Both the position numbers and the translations under genes were made by a program. Shown here piece after piece: positions 2,945 through 64,000 of a DNA stretch of 64,000 bases; position 1 is the first letter of the stretch; each line of letters begins with the position of its first letter. A model generated the notes under the pieces. The model searched no databases, was not told where the DNA came from, and worked only from the letters and a program-made list of their open reading frames with translations. The DNA lies in the NCBI RefSeq assembly GCF_055900595.2, contig NZ_CM148325.1. One strand, 5' to 3'.

Positions 2945-3150
2945 GGCAACTCCAGTTTATGTATTTGTCTGGAAAAATTCACCGCCACAAACTACCACTA
3001 AAAATGTGGTTTTATATTTTTTGCCGCCGTGAATATGTAATTCACAGTTCGTGAATCAACGCGAAAATAAGAATGAATATTGCGCCAGAGCAGGGAATGG
3101 CAATGTTTTGCGAAATACACTGCGCTTATCATAACTGCGGATAATTAACG

Positions 3151-8101: not shown

Positions 8102-8443
8102 CAGGCTGTCGTTATTGTCATGGAAAGTGGAACGATAGTAGTGGCATCAGTGTCGCTACGCAAAGCATTCGACATCAATCGGAATCCTCTGTGTCAGGTC
8201 TTGCCACTGCTTCAAACTTTTACGCCCGTCAAATTGCCCGTTGCATGGCAATTTGGCGCAAAATACTATCTACTGACAAAAAAGATCGCATTAAGTTCGC
8301 CGTTCATCGTCACTTATGTGACATAACCGATAAGTAAAGGCCTTGACATCCTCCCCCACCTTCGCGCAAAGCGACTCAGGAGGGGGATTCCCTTGTCAGG
8401 GTAGCAATACGTTGCCGCATTGCCCGGTTCCTCGCTCGACGGC

Positions 8444-9649
8444 TTACGCCGCCTTACGGGCGCGTCCTTTACGGACTGACGGCAATATTTGTCCTGCCGC
8501 CATGACTTCAAAACCTGCTGTTAATATATTGCGAGCGCCGTTTACATCGGCGTTTGCCGTATAGCCGCACGCGGTACAGATAAAGCTCGCCTGCGTCCTG
8601 CGGTTATTTTTCGATGTATGCCCACAACATGCGCATTTCTGACTGGTGTACGCCGGATTAATCGCCAGCACATCACCGCCGCGCCATGCCTGCTTATATT
8701 CGAGCTGGCGGCGCATTTCTGCCCAGCCCTGATCCAGTATCGCCCGGTTAAGACCTGATTTTGCCGCGACGTTGCGCCCCGGCTGGTCTACCGTACCCGC
8801 TGCTGATTTTGACATGTTCGAAACCTTTAAATCCTCAATGACTATCATCGCGTGGTTTTTGCTGATCGTCGTCGTGGTTTTATGAAGGTAATCGCGGCGG
8901 ATGTTTGCGATATGAGAGTGGAAACGGGAAATCTTCGCTTTCTGCTTTTTCCAGTTGGCGGAGAATTTAACCATCCGGGCCAGACGGCGCTGTAAGCGAG
9001 CCAGCTTATCCTGATTTTTTTTAAAGCTGTTTACCGGTTCAAAGACCGTGCCGTCTGAAAGTGTTGCCAGCTTTGTTATACCTGCATCCAGGCCTATTGC
9101 GCTGGTCGATGCGTGAATCGGATCGGTAACAGCTAATTCGACCTGAAAAGACACATACCAGTGTCCGGCATGCTGGCTGATGGTGCAATTTTTAATGACG
9201 CCTTCAATCTTCCGGGACTGACGAAATTTAACCCAGCCCAGTCCTGACGAGAGTTTCACACGGCCATAATCCAGCCCACAATATTTGCTGAAATTGACGA
9301 ACCGGATAGAGTCGCAGCCTTTGGTTTTCTTTTTGAAAACGGGCTTTTCAGCCGTCAGGGATTTATCAAAACAGCGATCCCATGCGCTCCGCAGGTCTTT
9401 CAGTTTCTGCTGGAGGTTGTCAGTGTAACCCTCAGCAAGAAAGGCCAGCTCAGGGAGTTTTTTCCAGCCCGTAAGTCGTTTATTCAGGTCGAAAGCTGAC
9501 GGAATTTTTCCGCCCGCGTCATGAATGCTCAGTGTTTCATTCAGTGCATAGTTCCAGACAAAGCGAGCGCAACCGCACAACTGACGCAACCTTTGCGCCT
9601 GCTGGTCAGTGGGGTAGAGCCTGTATTTATATGCTTTCTGGATTAACAT
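8444..9649 (-). CDS. tnpB: TnpB (OrfB) RuvC-like putative RNA-guided endonuclease of IS200/IS605 family
   Basis: 401-aa ORF; RuvC-I (AIGLDAGI), RuvC-II (IVIEDLKV), zinc finger CACCGH...CTACGY, RuvC-III (NADVNGARNI) all present. Confidence 0.9.
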   Translation of the reverse strand: MLIQKAYKYRLYPTDQQAQRLRQLCGCARFVWNYALNETLSIHDAGGKIPSAFDLNKRLTGWKKLPELAFLAEGYTDNLQQKLKDLRSAWDRCFDKSLTAEKPVFKKKTKGCDSIRFVNFSKYCGLDYGRVKLSSGLGWVKFRQSRKIEGVIKNCTISQHAGHWYVSFQVELAVTDPIHASTSAIGLDAGITKLATLSDGTVFEPVNSFKKNQDKLARLQRRLARMVKFSANWKKQKAKISRFHSHIANIRRDYLHKTTTTISKNHAMIVIEDLKVSNMSKSAAGTVDQPGRNVAAKSGLNRAILDQGWAEMRRQLEYKQAWRGGDVLAINPAYTSQKCACCGHTSKNNRRTQASFICTACGYTANADVNGARNILTAGFEVMAAGQILPSVRKGRARKAA

Positions 9650-9661
9650 TTTGCATTCAGT

Positions 9662-10114
9662 ATGTGGTTATTTAGAATGTACAATATATCCACATTTTTT
9701 TGGGAGGATCAATACGTGTGCGAAATCAATCGTTCACGCTATTCAGCTTACCTGTTGCATGTTCACGTTGTTTTTATGACAAAATACCGCCGTCCAGTTT
9801 TTGGTGAATTGCATCATGCAAACATGCGTCAGTATGTAGCGGAGGTATGCGCGGACTTTGGCGCCGAGTTAAAGGAATGTGACGGCGAGGCAGATCATGT
9901 TCACATGCTGATTGAATACCCACCGTTGGTGCAACTCACAAAGCTGGTAAACAGCCTTAAGTCCGTTACCAGTAGGCGGCTGCGGAATGATTTTATTGAT
10001 TTGCGCGCCGCGTATTCAAAGCCCGTACTCTGGTCACGCTCTTATTTCATCGGTTCATGTGGTGGAGCACCGCTGGAAGTTGTGAAAAAGTATATTCAGA
10101 ATCAGCGTGGCTGA
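9662..10114 (+). CDS. tnpA: IS200/IS605-family Y1 (HUH) transposase TnpA
   Basis: 150-aa ORF; HVHML (HuH) motif and C-terminal catalytic Tyr region (SYFIGSCGG); true start may be internal to the track ORF. Confidence 0.82.
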   Translation: MWLFRMYNISTFFWEDQYVCEINRSRYSAYLLHVHVVFMTKYRRPVFGELHHANMRQYVAEVCADFGAELKECDGEADHVHMLIEYPPLVQLTKLVNSLKSVTSRRLRNDFIDLRAAYSKPVLWSRSYFIGSCGGAPLEVVKKYIQNQRG

Positions 10115-10184
10115 TAAACTGCGGGCTTAACAGCCCAAATTCCCCTCCCGCCTACGTTGGGGGGGAGTACCCAGTGGAGGAAGG

Positions 10185-20820: not shown

Positions 20821-21528
20821 AAATATCCTCCGGCATAGCCGGAGGTTTTTCAAATGCGCCTGTAAGGCTCTGTTACCAGCCGCGCCCTAACAGGCGCATA
20901 CGATCTGACATTTGCATTCAACTTCGTTACTTACGGCCCGTAAACGGGCTGCCCGGATATGGAATCGATAACTGCTCCCCCATTTTATCCTCTTCAAGCT
21001 GGTGCTTTATGTAGTCCTGTATCTTCGCCGTGTTCTTACCCACCGTATCGACATAGTACCCTCGGCACCAGAACTCCCTGTTTCTGTATTTGAATTTCAA
21101 ATCCCCAAACTGCTCGTAAAGCATCAGACTGCTTTTCCCTTTCAGATATCCCATAAAGCCGGATACGCTCATTTTGGGTGGGATTTCCACAAGCATATGG
21201 ATATGATCTGCGCAGCACTCTGCTTCCAGAATCCGTACGCTTTTCCACTCACACAGCTTTCTCAAAATACTGCCTATCGCCCTACGCTTCTCTCCGTAAA
21301 ACGCCAGTCTTCGGTATTTCGGCGCAAAAACTATGTGATATTTACAGTTCCAGCGGGTGTGCGCTAAGCTCTTTTCGTCCCCCATTGGGACCCCCTTTTG
21401 ATTTCTTGTTTGACACTTGCAGTTGCCAGACCGCAAGGTGTTTTAACAAATCAAAAGGGGTTTTAATAACTGGCTCAAAGCTGAAAGCTTTCCGGAACCC
21501 CCAGCCTAGCTGGGGGTTTTCTGTGCAC
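20821..21528 (-). mobile_element. IS200 insertion sequence (~708 bp); ends inferred (+/-20 bp)
   Basis: 152-aa IS200 TnpA; left end (high coordinate) inferred from hairpins at 21495-21517 and 21391-21460, which match the recalled IS200 leader positions (nt 12-34 and 69-138). Confidence 0.65.
20927..21385 (-). CDS. tnpA: IS200 transposase TnpA (Y1/HUH)
   Basis: MGDEKSLAHTRWNCKYHIVFAPKYRR...HIHMLVEIPP...; 152 aa from second in-frame ATG. Confidence 0.9.
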   Translation of the reverse strand: MGDEKSLAHTRWNCKYHIVFAPKYRRLAFYGEKRRAIGSILRKLCEWKSVRILEAECCADHIHMLVEIPPKMSVSGFMGYLKGKSSLMLYEQFGDLKFKYRNREFWCRGYYVDTVGKNTAKIQDYIKHQLEEDKMGEQLSIPYPGSPFTGRK

Positions 21529-55104: not shown

Positions 55105-55791
55105 GACCTCTCCTTTCCACCATTCAATTTCGAAACAATGTTTCCAGTTTAGCGATTTACCAGGGGGGATCCCGTAGCATCGCTCACAGTGTGACGAAAA
55201 ACTGGGCAAAAACACGTGCTTATGCTTTGCTTAAAAAAACACCAATTAAGGAGTGCAATGATGCCGCGTCTGACCGCTAAAGATTTCCCACAAGAGTTGC
55301 TGGATTACTACGACTATTACGCTCACGGGAAAATTTCGAAACGTGAGTTCCTCAACCTTGCGGCGAAGTATGCGGTGGGCGGGATGACGGCATTAGCGTT
55401 GTTTGATTTGCTCAAGCCAAATTATGCGCTGGCGACTCAGGTAGAGTTTACCGACCCGGAAATTGTTGCTGAGTACATCACGTATTCTTCGCCAAATGGT
55501 CACGGCGAGGTACGGGGTTATCTGGTGAAGCCCGCAAAGATGAGCGGCAAAACGCCAGCCGTGGTGGTGGTGCATGAGAATCGTGGACTGAATCCGTATA
55601 TCGAAGATGTGGCACGGCGAGTAGCGAAGGCGGGGTATATCGCCCTGGCACCTGACGGCTTAAGTTCCGTTGGAGGTTATCCGGGTAATGATGATAAAGG
55701 TCGTGAGCTGCAACAGCAGGTTGATCCAACCAAACTGATGAATGATTTCTTTGCCGCAATTGAGTTTATGCAACGCTATCCGCAAGCGACA

Positions 55792-55800
55792 GGCAAAGTG
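55792..55800. repeat. 9-bp target site duplication (GGCAAAGTG), left copy
   Basis: Identical 9-mer directly flanks both IS10 ends. Confidence 0.85.
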
Positions 55801-55813
55801 CTGAGAGATCCCC

Positions 55814-57022
55814 TCATAATTTCCCCAAAACGTAACCATGTGTGAATAGATTTTGAGTAAGCAGGGTTGCAGCCACGAGTGAGTCTTCCCTTGTTATTGT
55901 GTAGCCAGAATGCCGCAAAACTTCCATGCCTAAGCGAACTGTTGAGAGTACGTTTCGATTTCTGACTGTGTTAGCCTGGAAGTGCTTGTCCCAACCTTGT
56001 TTCTGAGCATGAACGCCCGCAAGCCAACATGTTAGTTGAAGCATCAGGGCGATTAGCAGCATGATATCAAAACGCTCTGAGCTGCTCGTTCGGCTATGGC
56101 GTAGGCCTAGTCCGTAGGCAGGACTTTTCAAGTCTCGGAAGGTTTCTTCAATCTGCATTCGCTTCGAATAGATATTAACAAGTTGTTTGGGTGTTCGAAT
56201 TTCAACAGGTAAGTTAGTTGCTAGAATCCATGGCTCCTTTGCCGACGCTGAGTAGATTTTAGGTGACGGGTGGTGACAATGAGTCCGTGTCGAGCGCTGA
56301 TTTTTTCGGCCTTTAGAGCGAGATTTATACAATAGAATTTGGCATGAGATTGGATTGCTTTTAGTCAGCCTCTTATAGCCTAAAGTCTTTGAGTGACTAG
56401 ATGACATATCATGTAAGTTGCTGATAGGTTTCCAGTTTTCCGCTCCTAGGTCTGCATATTGTACTTTTCCTCTTACTCGACTTAACCAGTACCAACCCAG
56501 CTTCTCAACGGATTTATACCATGGCACTTTAAAGCCAGCATCACTGACAATGAGCGGTGTGGTGTTACTCGGTAGAATGCTCGCAAGGTCGGCTAGAAAT
56601 TGGTCATGAGCTTTCTTTGAACATTGCTCTGAAAGCGGGAACGCTTTCTCATAAAGAGTAACAGAACGACCGTGTAGTGCGACTGAAGCTCGCAATACCA
56701 TAAGCCGTTTTTGCTCACGGATATCAGACCAGTCAACAAGTACAATGGGCATCGTATTGCCCGAACAGATAAAGCTAGCATGCCAACGGTATACAGCGAG
56801 TCGCTCTTTGTGGAGGTGACGATTACCTAACAATCGGTCGATTCGTTTGATGTTATGTTTTGTTCTCGCTTTGGTTGGCAGGTTACGGCCAAGTTCGGTA
56901 AGAGTGAGAGTTTTACAGTCAAGTAAGGCGTGGCAAGCCAACGTTAAGCTGTTGAGTCGTTTTAAGTGTAATTCGGGGCAGAATTGGTAAAGAGAGTCGT
57001 GTAAAATATCGAGTTCGCACAT
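55814..57022 (-). CDS. tnp: IS10 transposase (IS4 family, DDE)
   Basis: 402-aa ORF MCELDILHDSLYQFCPELHLKRLNSLTLACHALLDCKTLTLTELGRNLPTKARTKHNIKRIDRLLGN... Confidence 0.95.
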   Translation of the reverse strand: MCELDILHDSLYQFCPELHLKRLNSLTLACHALLDCKTLTLTELGRNLPTKARTKHNIKRIDRLLGNRHLHKERLAVYRWHASFICSGNTMPIVLVDWSDIREQKRLMVLRASVALHGRSVTLYEKAFPLSEQCSKKAHDQFLADLASILPSNTTPLIVSDAGFKVPWYKSVEKLGWYWLSRVRGKVQYADLGAENWKPISNLHDMSSSHSKTLGYKRLTKSNPISCQILLYKSRSKGRKNQRSTRTHCHHPSPKIYSASAKEPWILATNLPVEIRTPKQLVNIYSKRMQIEETFRDLKSPAYGLGLRHSRTSSSERFDIMLLIALMLQLTCWLAGVHAQKQGWDKHFQANTVRNRNVLSTVRLGMEVLRHSGYTITREDSLVAATLLTQNLFTHGYVLGKL

Positions 57023-57083
57023 TTTGTTGTCTGATTATTGATTTTTGGCGAAACCATTTGATCATATGACAAGATGTGTATCC
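57015..57083 (+). ncRNA. IS10 RNA-OUT antisense RNA (predicted from IS10 coordinates)
   Basis: Corresponds to IS10 bp 115-47; sequence tcgcacattttgttgtctgattattgatttttggcgaaaccatttgatcatatgacaagatgtgtatcc is antisense to the transposase start; GATC (dam) site in the pIN -10 region. Confidence 0.5.
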
Positions 57084-57129
57084 ACCTTAACTTAATGATT
57101 TTTACCAAAATCATTAGGGGATTCATCAG

Positions 57130-57138
57130 GGCAAAGTG
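57130..57138. repeat. 9-bp target site duplication (GGCAAAGTG), right copy
   Basis: Identical to 55792-55800. Confidence 0.85.
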
Positions 57139-57604
57139 GGTATTACCGGATTTTGCTATGGCGGTGGTGTATCGAACGCGGCGGCTGTCGCGTATCCGGA
57201 ACTGGCCTGCGCGGTGCCGTTTTATGGTCGTCAGGCACCCACTGCCGATGTGGCGAAGATTGAAGCGCCTTTACTGCTCCACTACGCGGAACTGGATACC
57301 CGAATCAACGAGGGCTGGCCCGCTTACGAGGCGGCGTTGAAAGCCAATAATAAGGTCTATGAGGCGTATATCTATCCGGGGGTTAATCACGGATTCCATA
57401 ATGATTCCACGCCCCGTTATGACAAATCTGCCGCCGATCTTGCCTGGCAAAGGACGCTGAAATGGTTCGATAAATATCTCTCCTGATAGGTTTATCTCTT
57501 ACGGGATTACGTCTTAAACAAGCATGAAAAAATAGCGTGCGCAAAAGTCGTTCTTTGCCTAAAATATCGCTATATATGACAATATATAGCGAATGAGGTG
57601 AACG

Positions 57605-57892
57605 ATGAATAACCATTTTGGTAAAGGCTTAATGGCGGGATTAAAAGCAACGCATGCCGACAGTGCGGTTAATGTGACAAAATACTGTGCCGGTTATAAA
57701 CGCGGTTTTGTATTAGGCTACTCACACCGGATGTACGAAAAGACCGGAGATCGCCAGCTTAGCGCCTGGGAAGCGGGGATTCTGACGCGCCGCTATGGAC
57801 TGGATAAAGAGATGGTAATGGATTTCTTTCGTGAGAATAATTCCTGTTCTACGTTGCGCTTTTTTATGGCCGGTTATCGCCTCGAAAATTGA
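57605..57892 (+). CDS. yghW: DUF2623 protein YghW
   Basis: 95-aa [38 protein letters not shown]... Confidence 0.75.
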
Positions 57893-58080
57893 TCAAACAT
57901 ACGTATTATCTTGCTTTAATTAATTACACTAATGCTTATTCCCTTCGTTTTAGTGCCCCGCCGCAGTATCATGATATCGATAACCATAATAAATGTGTGG
58001 TAAATGGCGCATCGATCGCATTATTGATTTTGCGATTGAGGCAAAATATATGCCAGGTCTTCGCAACGGAATAACTATAA

Positions 58081-59199
58081 ATGACTGGAGATAACACCCT
58101 CATCCATTCTCACGGCATTAACCGTCGTGATTTCATGAAGCTTTGTGCAGCATTAGCCGCCACCATGGGGTTAAGTAGCAAAGCCGCTGCAGAGATGGCC
58201 GAATCGGTTACTAACCCGCAGCGTCCGCCAGTTATCTGGATTGGCGCGCAGGAGTGCACCGGTTGTACGGAATCTCTGCTTCGTGCAACGCATCCAACGG
58301 TAGAAAACCTCATGCTGGAGACGATCTCTCTGGAGTATCACGAAGTGCTTTCCGCCGCCTTCGGTCATCAGGTCGAAGAGAACAAACATAACGCTCTTGA
58401 GAAGTACAAAGGGCAGTATGTGTTAGTGGTAGATGGTTCCATCCCATTAAAAGATAATGGTATTTATTGCATGGTTGCTGGTGAGCCGATTGTGGATCAC
58501 ATCCGCAAAGCGGCGGAAGGCGCAGCAGCCATTATCGCTATCGGTTCCTGCTCTGCGTGGGGCGGTGTTGCTGCAGCTGGAGTTAACCCAACTGGCGCTG
58601 TCAGCCTGCAAGAAGTTCTGCCGGGCAAAACCGTTATCAACATTCCGGGCTGCCCACCGAACCCGCACAACTTCCTCGCGACCGTTGCGCACATCATCAC
58701 TTACGGCAAACCGCCGAAACTGGATGACAAAAACCGTCCGACTTTCGCCTATGGCCGTCTGATTCACGAACACTGCGAACGCCGCCCGCACTTCGATGCT
58801 GGTCGTTTTGCCAAAGAGTTCGGTGATGAAGGCCACCGCGAAGGCTGGTGCCTGTACCACCTCGGCTGTAAAGGGCCAGAAACTTACGGCAACTGCTCAA
58901 CGCTGCAATTCTGCGATGTTGGTGGTGTGTGGCCGGTGGCGATTGGTCACCCGTGCTATGGCTGTAACGAAGAAGGTATCGGCTTCCATAAAGGCATCCA
59001 TCAGCTTGCCAACGTCGAAAACCAGACTCCGCGTTCGCAGAAACCGGATGTTAACGCTAAAGAGGGCGGCAACGTCTCTGCGGGCGCTATCGGTTTGCTC
59101 GGCGGTGTGGTTGGGCTGGTTGCCGGTGTCAGCGTGATGGCGGTGCGTGAACTGGGTCGTCAGCAAAAGAAAGATAACGCTGACTCACGGGGAGAATAA
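58081..59199 (+). CDS. hybO: [NiFe] hydrogenase 2 small subunit
   Basis: 372-aa ORF with Tat signal ([16 protein letters not shown]) and Fe-S cysteine motifs. Confidence 0.95.
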
Positions 59200-59201
59200 C
59201 C

Positions 59202-60188
59202 GTGAACAGACGTAATTTTATTAAAGCAGCCTCCTGCGGGGCATTGCTGACGGGCGCGTTGCCGTCTGTCAGTCATGCGGCTGCTGAAAACCGCCCGCCA
59301 ATTCCGGGATCGCTGGGGATGTTGTATGACTCGACGCTGTGCGTAGGCTGCCAGGCTTGCGTCACTAAGTGTCAGGATATCAACTTCCCTGAACGTAACC
59401 CACAAGGGGAACAGACCTGGTCGAATAACGACAAACTGTCGCCGTACACCAATAACATTATCCAGGTGTGGACCAGCGGCACGGGAGTCAACAAAGACCA
59501 GGAAGAGAACGGCTATGCGTACATTAAGAAACAGTGTATGCACTGCGTCGATCCGAACTGTGTCTCCGTGTGCCCGGTCTCCGCGCTGAAAAAAGATCCG
59601 AAAACCGGCATTGTCCATTACGACAAAGATGTGTGCACCGGCTGCCGTTACTGCATGGTCGCCTGCCCGTACAACGTGCCGAAGTACGACTACAACAACC
59701 CGTTTGGTGCGCTGCATAAGTGCGAGCTGTGCAACCAGAAAGGTGTGGAACGTCTTGATAAAGGCGGTCTGCCTGGCTGCGTAGAAGTGTGCCCGGCGGG
59801 CGCGGTGATTTTTGGTACGCGTGAAGAGCTGATGGCGGAGGCGAAAAAACGTCTGGCGCTGAAGCCTGGCAGCGAATACCACTATCCGCGTCAGACGCTG
59901 AAATCTGGCGACACTTACCTGCATACGGTGCCGAAATATTATCCGCATCTGTACGGCGAGAAAGAGGGCGGCGGTACTCAGGTACTGGTACTGACGGGTG
60001 TGCCTTATGAAAATCTCGACCTGCCGAAACTGGACGATCTTTCTACTGGTGCGCGTTCCGAACATGTTCAACACACCCTGTATAAAGGCATGATGCTACC
60101 ACTGGCTGTGCTGGCGGGCTTAACCGTGCTGGTTCGTCGCAACACCAAAAACGACCATCACGACGGAGGAGACGATCATGAGTCATGA
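59202..60188 (+). CDS. hybA: hydrogenase 2 4Fe-4S ferredoxin-type component
   Basis: 328-aa ORF with Tat-like signal ([13 protein letters not shown]) and multiple CxxCxxCxxxCP motifs. Confidence 0.92.
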
Positions 60189-61356
60189 TCCACAACCGCT
60201 GGGCGGCAAAATCATCAGTAAACCGGTCATGATTTTTGGACCGTTAATCGTCATCTGTATGCTCCTGATTGTGAAGCGTCTGGTGTTCGGTCTGGGCTCT
60301 GTCTCTGACCTGAACGGCGGCTTCCCGTGGGGCGTGTGGATCGCGTTTGACCTGTTGATCGGCACCGGCTTCGCCTGTGGCGGCTGGGCGCTGGCGTGGG
60401 CGGTATACGTCTTTAACCGTGGGCAATACCATCCGCTGGTACGTCCGGCACTGTTGGCAAGTCTGTTTGGTTACTCACTGGGTGGCTTGTCGATCACTAT
60501 CGACGTGGGGCGCTACTGGAACCTGCCGTACTTCTACATTCCGGGTCACTTCAACGTGAACTCGGTACTGTTCGAGACGGCGGTCTGTATGACCATCTAC
60601 ATCGGCGTGATGGCACTGGAGTTTGCTCCGGCACTGTTTGAACGTCTGGGCTGGAAAGTGTCGCTACAGCGTCTGAACAAGGTGATGTTCTTCATCATCG
60701 CGCTCGGCGCGCTGCTGCCAACTATGCACCAGTCTTCAATGGGGTCGCTGATGATCTCGGCGGGCTACAAGGTGCATCCGCTGTGGCAAAGCTATGAAAT
60801 GTTGCCGCTGTTCTCGCTGTTGACGGCGTTCATCATGGGCTTCTCGATTGTCATCTTTGAAGGTTCGCTGGTGCAGGCGGGTCTGCGTGGCAACGGTCCG
60901 GATGAAAAGAGCCTGTTCGTCAAACTGACCAACACCATCAGTGTGTTGCTGGCGATTTTCATCGTGTTGCGCTTTGGCGAGCTGATCTATCGCGACAAGC
61001 TGTCGTTAGCGTTTGCCGGTGACTTCTACTCCGTGATGTTCTGGATTGAAGTCCTGCTGATGCTCTTCCCGCTGGTTGTTCTGCGTGTGGCGAAGCTGCG
61101 TAATGATTCCCGCATGCTGTTCCTGTCAGCATTGAGCGCACTGTTAGGTTGTGCAACCTGGCGTCTGACCTATTCGCTGGTGGCATTCAACCCGGGCGGC
61201 GGTTACGCCTACTTCCCGACCTGGGAAGAACTGTTGATTTCTATTGGTTTTGTGGCTATTGAGATTTGCGCTTACATCGTACTCATTCGTCTACTGCCGA
61301 TACTTCCTCCTTTAAAACAAAACGATCATAATCGTCATGAGGCGAGCAAAGCATGA
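60178..61356 (+). CDS. hybB: hydrogenase 2 integral membrane subunit (NrfD/PsrC-like)
   Basis: 392-aa polytopic membrane ORF; 11-bp overlap with hybA. Confidence 0.92.
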
Positions 61357-63056
61357 GCCAGAGAATTACTATTGATCCGGTAACCCGAATTGAAGGGCAT
61401 TTACGCATCGATTGCGAAATCGAAAATGGCGTCGTTTCGAAAGCATGGGCTTCCGGTACCATGTGGCGCGGCATGGAAGAGATCGTGAAAAACCGCGATC
61501 CGCGCGATGCATGGATGATTGTGCAACGTATCTGTGGCGTATGTACTACCACTCACGCGCTGTCTTCTGTCCGTGTGGCAGAGAGCGCGCTGAATATCGA
61601 CGTTCCGGTTAACGCGCAATACATCCGTAACATCATTCTGGCTGCGCACACCACGCATGACCATATCGTTCATTTCTATCAGCTTTCAGCGCTGGACTGG
61701 GTGGACATCACTTCTGCACTGCAAGCTGACCCAACCAAAGCCTCGGAAATGCTGAAAGGCGTTTCGACCTGGCATCTGAACAGCCCGGAAGAGTTCACTA
61801 AAGTTCAGAACAAGATCAAAGATCTGGTTGCCAGCGGTCAGTTGGGTATTTTCGCTAATGGCTACTGGGGGCACCCGGCAATGAAACTGCCGCCGGAAGT
61901 GAACCTGATTGCGGTAGCGCACTACCTGCAGGCGCTGGAGTGCCAGCGTGACGCTAACCGCGTCGTGGCGCTGCTGGGCGGTAAAACGCCGCACATTCAG
62001 AACCTGGCGGTAGGTGGTGTCGCGAACCCGATCAACCTCGACGGTCTGGGTGTGCTGAACCTTGAGCGCCTGATGTACATCAAGTCTTTCATCGACAAAC
62101 TGAGCGACTTTGTTGAGCAGGTTTACAAGGTTGATACCGCGGTTATCGCCGCGTTCTATCCGGAATGGCTGACGCGCGGCAAAGGTGCGGTGAACTACCT
62201 GAGCGTGCCGGAATTCCCGACCGACAGCAAAAACGGCAGCTTCCTGTTCCCGGGCGGCTACATTGAGAATGCGGATCTGTCCTCGTATCGCCCGATCACT
62301 TCCCACTCCGATGAATACCTGATCAAAGGCATTCAGGAAAGCGCGAAGCACTCCTGGTATAAAGACGAAGCGCCGCAGGCACCGTGGGAAGGTACCACCA
62401 TTCCGGCTTATGATGGTTGGTCTGACGACGGGAAATATTCCTGGGTGAAATCACCGACTTTCTACGGCAAAACGGTAGAAGTGGGTCCGCTGGCTAATAT
62501 GCTGGTGAAACTGGCGGCAGGTCGCGAATCTACCCAGAATAAACTGAATGAAATCGTTGCGATTTATCAGAAACTGACTGGCAACACGCTGGAAGTGGCG
62601 CAGCTGCACTCCACGCTGGGCCGTATTATTGGTCGTACCGTTCACTGCTGCGAATTGCAGGATATCCTGCAAAACCAATACAGTGCACTGATCACCAATA
62701 TCGGCAAAGGCGATCACACCACCTTCGTGAAACCGAACATTCCGGCAACGGGTGAGTTCAAAGGTGTTGGCTTCCTCGAAGCGCCGCGCGGTATGCTCTC
62801 TCACTGGATGGTTATTAAAGACGGTATCATCAGCAACTACCAGGCGGTTGTTCCATCAACCTGGAACTCTGGCCCGCGTAACTTCAATGATGACGTCGGT
62901 CCTTACGAGCAGTCGCTGGTGGGTACGCCGGTTGCCGATCCGAATAAACCGCTGGAAGTGGTGCGTACCATTCACTCCTTCGACCCGTGCATGGCCTGTG
63001 CGGTACACGTAGTGGATGCCGACGGCAACGAAGTGGTTTCAGTGAAGGTTCTGTAA
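61353..63056 (+). CDS. hybC: [NiFe] hydrogenase 2 large subunit
   Basis: 567-aa ORF; N-terminal RICGVCTTTH and C-terminal DPCMACAVH Ni-binding motifs. Confidence 0.95.
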   Translation: MSQRITIDPVTRIEGHLRIDCEIENGVVSKAWASGTMWRGMEEIVKNRDPRDAWMIVQRICGVCTTTHALSSVRVAESALNIDVPVNAQYIRNIILAAHTTHDHIVHFYQLSALDWVDITSALQADPTKASEMLKGVSTWHLNSPEEFTKVQNKIKDLVASGQLGIFANGYWGHPAMKLPPEVNLIAVAHYLQALECQRDANRVVALLGGKTPHIQNLAVGGVANPINLDGLGVLNLERLMYIKSFIDKLSDFVEQVYKVDTAVIAAFYPEWLTRGKGAVNYLSVPEFPTDSKNGSFLFPGGYIENADLSSYRPITSHSDEYLIKGIQESAKHSWYKDEAPQAPWEGTTIPAYDGWSDDGKYSWVKSPTFYGKTVEVGPLANMLVKLAAGRESTQNKLNEIVAIYQKLTGNTLEVAQLHSTLGRIIGRTVHCCELQDILQNQYSALITNIGKGDHTTFVKPNIPATGEFKGVGFLEAPRGMLSHWMVIKDGIISNYQAVVPSTWNSGPRNFNDDVGPYEQSLVGTPVADPNKPLEVVRTIHSFDPCMACAVHVVDADGNEVVSVKVL

Positions 63057-63550
63057 TGCGTATTTTAGTCTTAGGGGTTGGCAATATTTTGCTGACCGAT
63101 GAAGCCATCGGTGTGCGGATTGTCGAAGCGTTAGAGCAACGATATATTCTGCCAGATTATGTTGAGATCCTCGATGGCGGCACGGCGGGAATGGAGCTGC
63201 TTGGCGACATGGCAAATCGTGATCATCTGATCATTGCGGATGCCATTGTGTCGAAGAAGAGCGCGCCGGGAACGATGATGATCCTGCGGGATGAAGAAGT
63301 TCCGGCGTTGTTTACCAACAAAATCTCTCCGCATCAGCTTGGCCTGGCCGACGTATTGTCGGCCCTGCGCTTCACCGGTGAGTTTCCGAAAAAGCTGACC
63401 CTGGTCGGCGTGATCCCGGAATCGCTGGAGCCACACATCGGCTTAACGCCGACGGTTGAAGCAATGATTGAACCTGCGCTTGAGCATGTTCTGGCTGCGC
63501 TGCGCGAATCAGGCGTGGAAGCCATCCCACGGGAGGCGATTCATGACTGA
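63056..63550 (+). CDS. hybD: hydrogenase 2 maturation endopeptidase
   Basis: 164-aa product from MRILVLGVGNILLTDEAIGVRIVE...; start overlaps hybC stop. Confidence 0.9.
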   Translation: MRILVLGVGNILLTDEAIGVRIVEALEQRYILPDYVEILDGGTAGMELLGDMANRDHLIIADAIVSKKSAPGTMMILRDEEVPALFTNKISPHQLGLADVLSALRFTGEFPKKLTLVGVIPESLEPHIGLTPTVEAMIEPALEHVLAALRESGVEAIPREAIHD

Positions 63551-64000
63551 AGAGATAGCAGGTTTCCAGACCTCCCCGAAGGCGCAAGTACAGGCAGCGT
63601 TTGAAGAAATTGCCCGGCGTTCGATGCACGATCTCTCTTTTCTGCATCCTTCAATGCCGGTGTATGTTTCTGACTTTACGCTGTTCGAAGGTCAGTGGAC
63701 GGGGTGTGTGATCACCCCGTGGATGCTGAGTGCGGTTATCTTCCCCGGCCCGGATCAACTCTGGCCACTGCGCAAAGTGAGTGAAAAAATTGGTCTGCAA
63801 CTGCCGTATGGCACCATGACCTTTACCGTTGGCGAACTGGACGGTGTTTCGCAATACCTCTCCTGCTCGCTGATGTCGCCGCTTTCGCACAGCATGTCGA
63901 TTGAAGAGGGCCAACGCCTGACGGATGACTGCGCACGAATGATCCTTTCGCTGCCAGTCACGAATCCGGATGTACCACACGCAGGGCGTCGCGCCCTGCT
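63543..64000 (+). CDS. hybE: hydrogenase 2-specific chaperone HybE, partial (runs off window end)
   Basis: ATG 63543 (MTEEIAGFQTSPKAQVQAAFEEIARR...), 8-bp overlap with hybD; open to the window edge. Confidence 0.8.
   Translation, partial: MTEEIAGFQTSPKAQVQAAFEEIARRSMHDLSFLHPSMPVYVSDFTLFEGQWTGCVITPWMLSAVIFPGPDQLWPLRKVSEKIGLQLPYGTMTFTVGELDGVSQYLSCSLMSPLSHSMSIEEGQRLTDDCARMILSLPVTNPDVPHAGRRAL

Follow-up and report, generated by a model that had tools for sequence, protein, structure and literature searches.

An IS10 element flanked by a perfect 9-bp duplication splits yghX in Escherichia coli

The IS10 element and its parts

The window (the whole 64-kb stretch of DNA that was analysed) carries yghX in two pieces, with an IS10 element between them. 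The element occupies positions 55801..57129 on the minus strand, which is exactly 1329 bp between two copies of the 9-mer GGCAAAGTG, as checked with a script, and it is placed in the ISVsa5 family by the NCBI annotation. Along the window strand the inside end, at 55801, comes first (CTGAGAGATCCCCTCATAATTTCCCC), and the outside end, at 57129, comes last, in reverse complement (CTGATGAATCCCCTAATGATTTTGGTAAAAATCATTAAG). The initial annotation of this DNA had described a complete 1329-bp IS10 with recognizable inside and outside ends; its coordinates are exact, and both termini were identified. The G+C content of the element is 44%, compared with 51% in the flanks. A script check of the 64-kb window found no second IS10 and no other piece of one.

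The terminal inverted repeats are imperfect, and each is located at the exact terminus of the element. The outside-end repeat (57107..57129, minus strand, IS10 nt 1-23) reads CTGATGAATCCCCTAATGATTTT, and the inside-end repeat (55801..55823, minus strand, IS10 nt 1307-1329) reads CTGAGAGATCCCCTCATAATTTC; the two ends have the same base at 17 of their first 23 positions. Adjoining the outside-end repeat is an IHF-like site, AATCATTAAGTTA (57088-57100), which we take to be an IHF binding site from general knowledge of IS10. GATC occurs at only two sites in the element, at nt 67-70 (57060..57063, in the pIN -10 region) and at nt 1320-1323 (55807-55810, within the inside-end repeat). These are presumably the known Dam-regulated sites of IS10, the regulatory role being assigned from the established biology of the element.

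The sole long open reading frame is the transposase gene (55814..57022, minus strand), which is uninterrupted and encodes a protein of 402 amino acids. This protein matches the IS4-family transposase profile, NCBIfam NF033591, at 402 bits (cut-off 152), and the DDE residues D97, D161 and E292 are all kept. We also identified RNA-OUT, the antisense RNA that represses translation of the transposase, at 57015..57084 on the plus strand (Rfam RF00240, 97.3 bits against a gathering score of 41, model positions 1-70 of 70). It corresponds to IS10 nt 115 to 46 and overlaps the start of the transposase gene at nt 108. A consensus promoter scan of positions 56850-57650 picked up neither pIN nor pOUT. 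These promoters were placed via the RNA-OUT match and published IS10 coordinates, and a -35 hexamer is not claimed. With both ends, a DDE transposase, the pIN/RNA-OUT pair and both Dam sites, this IS10 appears to hold all of the parts needed for further moves and for self-restraint. By its sequence the copy is complete, and we expect it to work and to regulate itself; indirect evidence that such an element can transpose comes from E. coli genomes with identical or near-identical copies at up to 45 places.

The target duplication, the empty site and the age of the insertion

The left copy of GGCAAAGTG (55792..55800) makes up yghX codons G179-K180-V181, and the right copy (57130..57138) abuts the IS10 outside end. 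These are the only two occurrences of the 9-mer when both strands of the 64-kb window are scanned, and an element would have the same 9-mer directly at its two ends by chance with a probability of only about 4^-9 (4e-6). The perfect 9-bp duplication described in the initial annotation is present at 55792-55800 and 57130-57138, and whether it is a duplication could be established from a homologous site that lacks the element.

Such a site is found in a near-clonal relative. Only 8 of the 5,426 complete E. coli genomes have at least 99% identity to the window over positions 34000-55800, and one of the eight is E. coli E500002, from human stool in India. Over the approximately 62 kb compared, roughly 15-20 substitutions, a few small indels and two IS insertions separate E500002 from the window. 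Its yghX is uninterrupted and annotated as 'YghX family hydrolase' (WP_001360974.1), and it carries GGCAAAGTG once, at the homologous position. Window positions 55261-55800 joined to 57139-57486 give the E500002 yghX, nucleotide for nucleotide. E500002 is a true empty site, and the comparison demonstrates the duplication directly.

The insertion had also been proposed to be recent, and the distribution of the occupied site agrees with this. No complete E. coli genome among the 5,426 has the occupied site, at a threshold of at least 80% coverage of a query spanning both junctions. The presence of IS10 in relatives was scored by counting the matching places in each record for a lineage-specific 21.8-kb query, with and without IS10 appended to it; the counts refer to chromosomes only. 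For the six nearest chromosomes that appear in both searches, appending IS10 adds no matching place in five and one place in the sixth, that of E500002. IS10 has therefore not resided for long on the chromosomes of this lineage. We conclude that the insertion happened recently and is limited to this strain or clone.

An independent assembly, SRR27886137, confirms that the organism really carries the insertion. A short-read contig from this assembly starts 30 nt inside the IS10 outside end, has the same junction as the window, and is 100.000% identical to window positions 57100-64000 over 6,901 bp. This contig (and another from an unrelated lineage, described below) was found by exact look-up of the 116-aa open reading frame of the yghX 3' fragment in a large assembly collection. 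The break at k-1 = 30 nt into IS10 suggests that, in that genome, the IS end has at least two different contexts. For the 5' fusion products, of 195 and 194 aa, the assembly collection has no exact record, as expected if short-read contigs break within the IS. The insertion is a clone-specific marker, and PCR across 55700-57250 tells the clone from near-identical relatives.

The split gene and other losses of yghX

The yghX 5' fragment (55258..55845, plus strand) consists of codons 1-181 followed by 14 IS-derived codons (LRDPLIISPKRNHV), with a stop at 55843-55845. Its ATG is at 55258; the RefSeq start is the second ATG, at 55261. The fragment codes for the N-terminal leader plus the first half of the dienelactone hydrolase (DLH) domain, and for no catalytic residue. 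The 3' fragment (57139..57486, plus strand) comprises codons 182-296 and the stop, in frame with the 5' part, and the catalytic triad is encoded entirely on it: Cys187 (57154-57156, in the GFCYGG motif), Asp233 and His265. Apart from a fortuitous GTG within the duplication, the 3' fragment lacks its own promoter and start signal. The transposase gene is antisense to yghX.

Restoring the gene (55258-55800 plus 57139-57486) gives a reading frame that is open over 296 codons. The restored protein scores 586.3 bits against NCBIfam NF041440 (cut-off 460), in a match that extends over the entire profile (positions 1-292 of 292); in the window as it stands the gene is split, so no single open reading frame matches this profile at full length. 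The Pfam DLH domain is found at residues 85-295 (164 bits, 3.8e-48), and the match to PDB 4ZV9 has E = 8e-160 with only 4 substitutions. Cys187, Asp233 and His265 align to C123, D171 and H202 of the Pseudomonas dienelactone hydrolase, and were aligned to 4ZV9 as well. The restored protein shares the Cys-Asp-His triad with the YghX family hydrolase of the DLH fold (4ZV9; DLH 1DIN), the difference being the split that follows codon 181 in the gene of this strain. The description of yghX as a split gene of the dienelactone-hydrolase family, continuous on restoration and with a GFCYGG motif, holds in full. The restored reading frame carries no other disabling lesion, and is 100% identical in nucleotide sequence to an annotated intact yghX.

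We predict that the yghX allele is null because the insertion lies after codon 181, upstream of Cys187, Asp233 and His265. No full-length protein would be possible, and the enzyme activity is probably lost. Transcription of the neighbouring genes could also be affected. RNA-OUT runs in the direction of the outside end, sense relative to the yghX 3' fragment and yghW, and both RNA-OUT and pOUT are directed out of IS10 into the yghX 3' fragment, yghW (57605-57892) and hybO (58081). Because activation of adjacent genes is known for IS10 (references cited in PMC4574204), read-through transcription from pOUT could reach the yghX 3' fragment and yghW/hybO.

We conclude, with a probability of about 93%, that in a wild E. 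coli other than K-12 a single intact IS10 moved by cut-and-paste into codons 179-181 of yghX, a gene that was functional apart from this, and that it created a recent null mutation. No observation speaks against this reading. From the established biology of IS10, the transposase would have made cuts staggered by 9 bp in the target, and gap repair would have generated the duplication of GGCAAAGTG. The product of the 5' fragment would have 181 YghX residues and 14 IS-derived residues, with the triad missing. The element, the mechanism and the gene offer nothing new, and the event is an ordinary one, of little importance beyond correct annotation: yghX here is a pseudogene, inactivated by a mobile element, and the inserted copy is a complete, probably active IS10/ISVsa5.

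The initial annotation proposed a comparison of the restored gene with the K-12 allele. The K-12 allele is itself a pseudogene, with two frameshifts, which makes the restored allele the better of the two. K-12 yghX (b4658, overlapping the small open reading frame yqhI) lies at the same locus, between gpr and yghW, and the gene is likewise inactive. However, K-12 has a 2-bp and a 1-bp deletion (at restored-gene nt ~112 and ~473, respectively) and no IS, whereas the window allele is intact apart from IS10.

We identified further disruptions of yghX in other genomes. In one locus of the assembly collection (L008) an IS1 end is located 12 nt upstream and breaks the gene. Seven fetched loci (L013-L019), taken to be Shigella-like, have a 1-bp insertion inside the same 9-mer, with IS1 transposase genes adjoining. 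The yghX genes of other lineages have nonsense codons at Q171 or Q175. A contiguous yghX is kept in 5,416 of 5,425 complete E. coli genomes. We conclude that yghX is dispensable and decays repeatedly, and the insertion described here adds to the evidence for its repeated loss in E. coli and Shigella. In K-12 strain engineering, yghX is used as a neutral integration site. Judged by titles and abstracts, the yghX papers found appear to be mostly strain-engineering work, and no functional study turned up among them; a search for literature on yghX together with insertion sequences found nothing relevant.

The target site is also occupied in another assembly, SRR35371900 (L007), in which the first bases of a contig are those of the IS10 outside end, followed directly by GGCAAAGTG and oriented as in the window. 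The flank of this contig differs from the window at 185 of 6,899 bases (2.7%). Three avian strains, 104, E166 and APEC O2-211, match this flank at 100% identity, and all three have the empty site. The junction is an independent insertion at the same site in an unrelated wild lineage, which is consistent with target preference. Recombinational transfer of the L007 junction was considered and rejected, given that the first allele difference is 11 nt past the duplication and that the flank has the 2.7% divergence given above. Look-up of the 116-aa open reading frame detects only those disruptions that make that reading frame; ascertainment is strongly biased to this site and yields no estimate of hotspot strength. 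A same-site insertion in an unrelated lineage is a mildly interesting point in itself.

As a target, the site matches the classical GCTNAGC core (target preference NGCTNAGCN) at 4 of 6 positions. A score that is equal or better is reached by 44 of the 883 sites in yghX, which places it in the top 5%. It fits in full the relaxed IS10 consensus NRCNNNGYN, as quoted in PMC4574204. With only four of the six positions matched, it does not appear to be a canonical IS10 hotspot.

The site could nevertheless be preferred or selected for IS10, rather than hit by neutral accident, if loss of yghX is useful, if pOUT pointing into yghW and the hyb operon is useful, or if there is a strong local hotspot. 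The unrelated wild lineage with IS10 in the same 9-mer and the same orientation would fit such an explanation, as would the fact that RNA-OUT/pOUT faces the yghX 3' fragment and yghW, and that yghX is also broken by IS1, by the 1-bp insertion, by nonsense codons and by the two K-12 frameshifts. However, the second insertion came from a look-up that sees only one exact reading frame and that draws on a very large assembly collection, the insertion is in none of the 5,426 complete genomes, yghX is contiguous in nearly all of those scored for it, and repeated decay of a dispensable gene suffices for the other lesions. We therefore regard preference or selection as unlikely. That GGCAAAGTG in yghX is a genuine natural IS10 hotspot, hit independently in unrelated lineages and possibly kept as useful, seems to us quite improbable. 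If it were so, the gain might lie in yghW or the hydrogenase-2 operon being transcribed from pOUT, or in the loss of a periplasmic thiol hydrolase.

Kinship of the IS10 copy

E. coli 55989, a wild, enteroaggregative isolate, has copies that match the IS10 in yghX at 100% nucleotide identity along the full 1329 bp. The window and 55989 copies are alike in ends, transposase, RNA-OUT, Dam sites and 9-bp duplication, and only the insertion site differs. As reference modules for Tn10 we used IS10-Right and IS10-Left of plasmid R100 (NC_002134), both of which have the same length and organisation as the window IS10. There are 4 nucleotide differences from IS10-Left, all in the outside end (nt 24, 25, 27 and 47), where the window copy has the IS10-Right bases. 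There are 11 differences from IS10-Right (nt 83, 107, 410, 425, 903, 1249, 1268, 1271, 1272, 1281 and 1300), and at these the window copy has the IS10-Left bases. By this comparison, nt 1-47 (the outside end) are of IS10-Right type and nt 48-1329 of IS10-Left type. The difference from IS10-Right at nt 83 is in the RNA-IN/RNA-OUT pairing region, and that at nt 107 is just before the ATG. The transposase is exactly the IS10-Left protein, and is 4 amino acids off that of IS10-Right (V266I, L381S, A389T and A398V). The copy is thus neither Tn10 module, but the form labelled ISVsa5 by NCBI.

The initial annotation had seen in this IS10 a hint of a Tn10 history in the strain. The element would then be an arm or remnant of Tn10, and the locus would have a history of carrying a tetracycline-resistance transposon. 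IS10 is the terminal module of Tn10, the R100 modules are only 4 and 11 positions off the window copy, and the same-clone contig (SRR27886137) that ends 30 nt into the IS suggests several contexts for the IS end. However, the duplication abuts both ends of a single IS10, which is the signature of solo transposition; a composite transposon would carry it outside the whole unit. The Tn10 interior (6,489 bp, from R100), which in the composite carries tetR/tet(B)/tetCD/jemABC between two inverted IS10 copies, has no blastn match in the 64-kb window, which also holds no second IS10, and the window copy is identical to neither module. IS10 is, moreover, far more common than the Tn10 interior: full-length IS10 is present in 1,173 of the 5,426 complete E. 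coli genomes, about three times as many as the 361 that have at least 80% of the interior. Places matching IS10, full-length or partial, have a median of 2 per genome with any match and number up to 45. A composite Tn10 at the locus was rejected, as there is one IS10 only and the interior is missing from the window. We consider a Tn10 history at this locus very unlikely, and the earlier hint is not supported. An IS10 copy in a wild isolate is not evidence of Tn10 or of tetracycline resistance.

It is extremely unlikely that the insertion is an artefact, either of misassembly or of an IS10 hop from a cloning host into a clone: contamination with IS10 from cloning hosts is a documented artefact (PMC4574204, PMC2758499) and the junction is in no complete RefSeq genome, but SRR27886137 shares the junction and has a flank of 100% identity, both junctions are exact and the duplication perfect, and the window copy is separated by 11 substitutions from IS10-Right (the module acting as the autonomous IS in Tn10; PMC4574204) and identical to the copies in wild isolate 55989. 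An origin in a laboratory host was rejected, because the element is not the IS10-Right of Tn10 and the junction was recovered independently in SRR27886137.

In an evenly spaced sample of the ranked matches, full-length IS10 copies in E. coli have 99.0-100% identity to the window copy, mostly 99.5-99.8%. It is mildly interesting that the common free-living form of IS10 is a clean mosaic of both Tn10 modules.

A second IS10 insertion and other lesions in yghX

The 9-mer of yghX that carries IS10 in the window (the element at 55801-57129, minus strand, with target duplications at 55792-55800 and 57130-57138) has been used by this element in another genome. The start of a short-read contig from SRR35371900 (L007 1-40), compared with window positions 57102-57140, shows IS10 joined to this very 9-mer, with the element oriented as it is in the window. 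The flanking sequence of this contig shares 97.3% identity with the window, but matches at 100% that of the avian strains 104, E166 and APEC O2-211, in which the yghX site is empty. This insertion is an independent event in an unrelated wild lineage.

Further independent yghX lesions are grouped within the ~40 bp that also hold the IS10 site. They are an IS1 end that lies 12 nt upstream (L008 1-45), nonsense codons at Q171 or Q175 (L005 and L010-L012, ~2970-2990) and a 1-bp insertion within the 9-mer itself (GGCATAAGTG), found at ~2990-3000 in seven loci (L013-L019) that have IS1 transposase genes on their flanks. At least part of this grouping reflects ascertainment bias, because the look-up used the exact 116-aa ORF of the yghX 3' fragment as query. 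One contig from SRR35641241 (L009 1-19) opens with Tn5 mosaic end / Nextera sequence (AGATGTGTATAAGAGACAG) joined to yghX (GCAAAGTGG); this start is probably an adapter or Tn5-library junction rather than a natural element.

Relationship of the IS10 to the Tn10 modules

Comparison of window positions 55801-57129 with the two IS10 modules of Tn10 on plasmid R100 (L003 36132-37460 and 43950-45278) shows that the window IS10 is an exact mosaic of both, with the bases of IS10-Right at nt 24-47 and those of IS10-Left at nt 83-1300. This mosaic form is widespread and free-living. Either it is a recombinant or the two Tn10 modules may have diverged from it as their ancestor; both are possibilities. 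Because the difference from IS10-Right at nt 83 falls where RNA-IN and RNA-OUT pair, the window IS10 and IS10-Right could cross-inhibit each other imperfectly through their antisense RNAs.

The YghX leader and the region upstream

Residues 2-37 of restored YghX, the ORF rejoined without IS10 and one 9-mer, match Pfam PF23678 (YqhI-like), and the K-12 small protein YqhI (L002 4598-4741) is the N-terminal stub of a frameshifted yghX. The leader of ~59 residues (residues 1-59, window 55258-55434) is missing from the crystallised domain, as 4ZV9 begins near YghX residue 58. With SKREFL, a hydrophobic stretch and ALA preceding T60, the leader resembles a Tat-type signal peptide in which KR replaces RR, and this likeness would suggest that YghX is a periplasmic enzyme. 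Upstream, in the gpr-yghX intergenic region (window ~55145), there is a 1-bp indel between the window (TTTCCAGTTT) and the near-clonal relative E500002 (TTTCAGTTT), which could be genuine or could stem from a sequencing error in one or other of the two assemblies.

IS200-type elements in the window and in E500002

An IS200 of ~0.7 kb lies between ribB and yqiD (window ~20824-21527). Its tnpA (20927-21385, minus strand) encodes a 152-aa protein whose score for the IS200/IS605 transposase family NF033573 is 144 bits. The element is not present in E500002 when that genome is compared with the window, and it is the second strain-specific mobile element of the window. Between ygiF and ygiM (window ~8440-10115), the E500002 annotation places ISEc41, with an IS200/IS605-like tnpA, and a gene for the RNA-guided endonuclease TnpB/InsQ. 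We infer that the window shares this pair because its alignment with E500002 is unbroken there, at 99.97% identity; the pair is not strain-specific.
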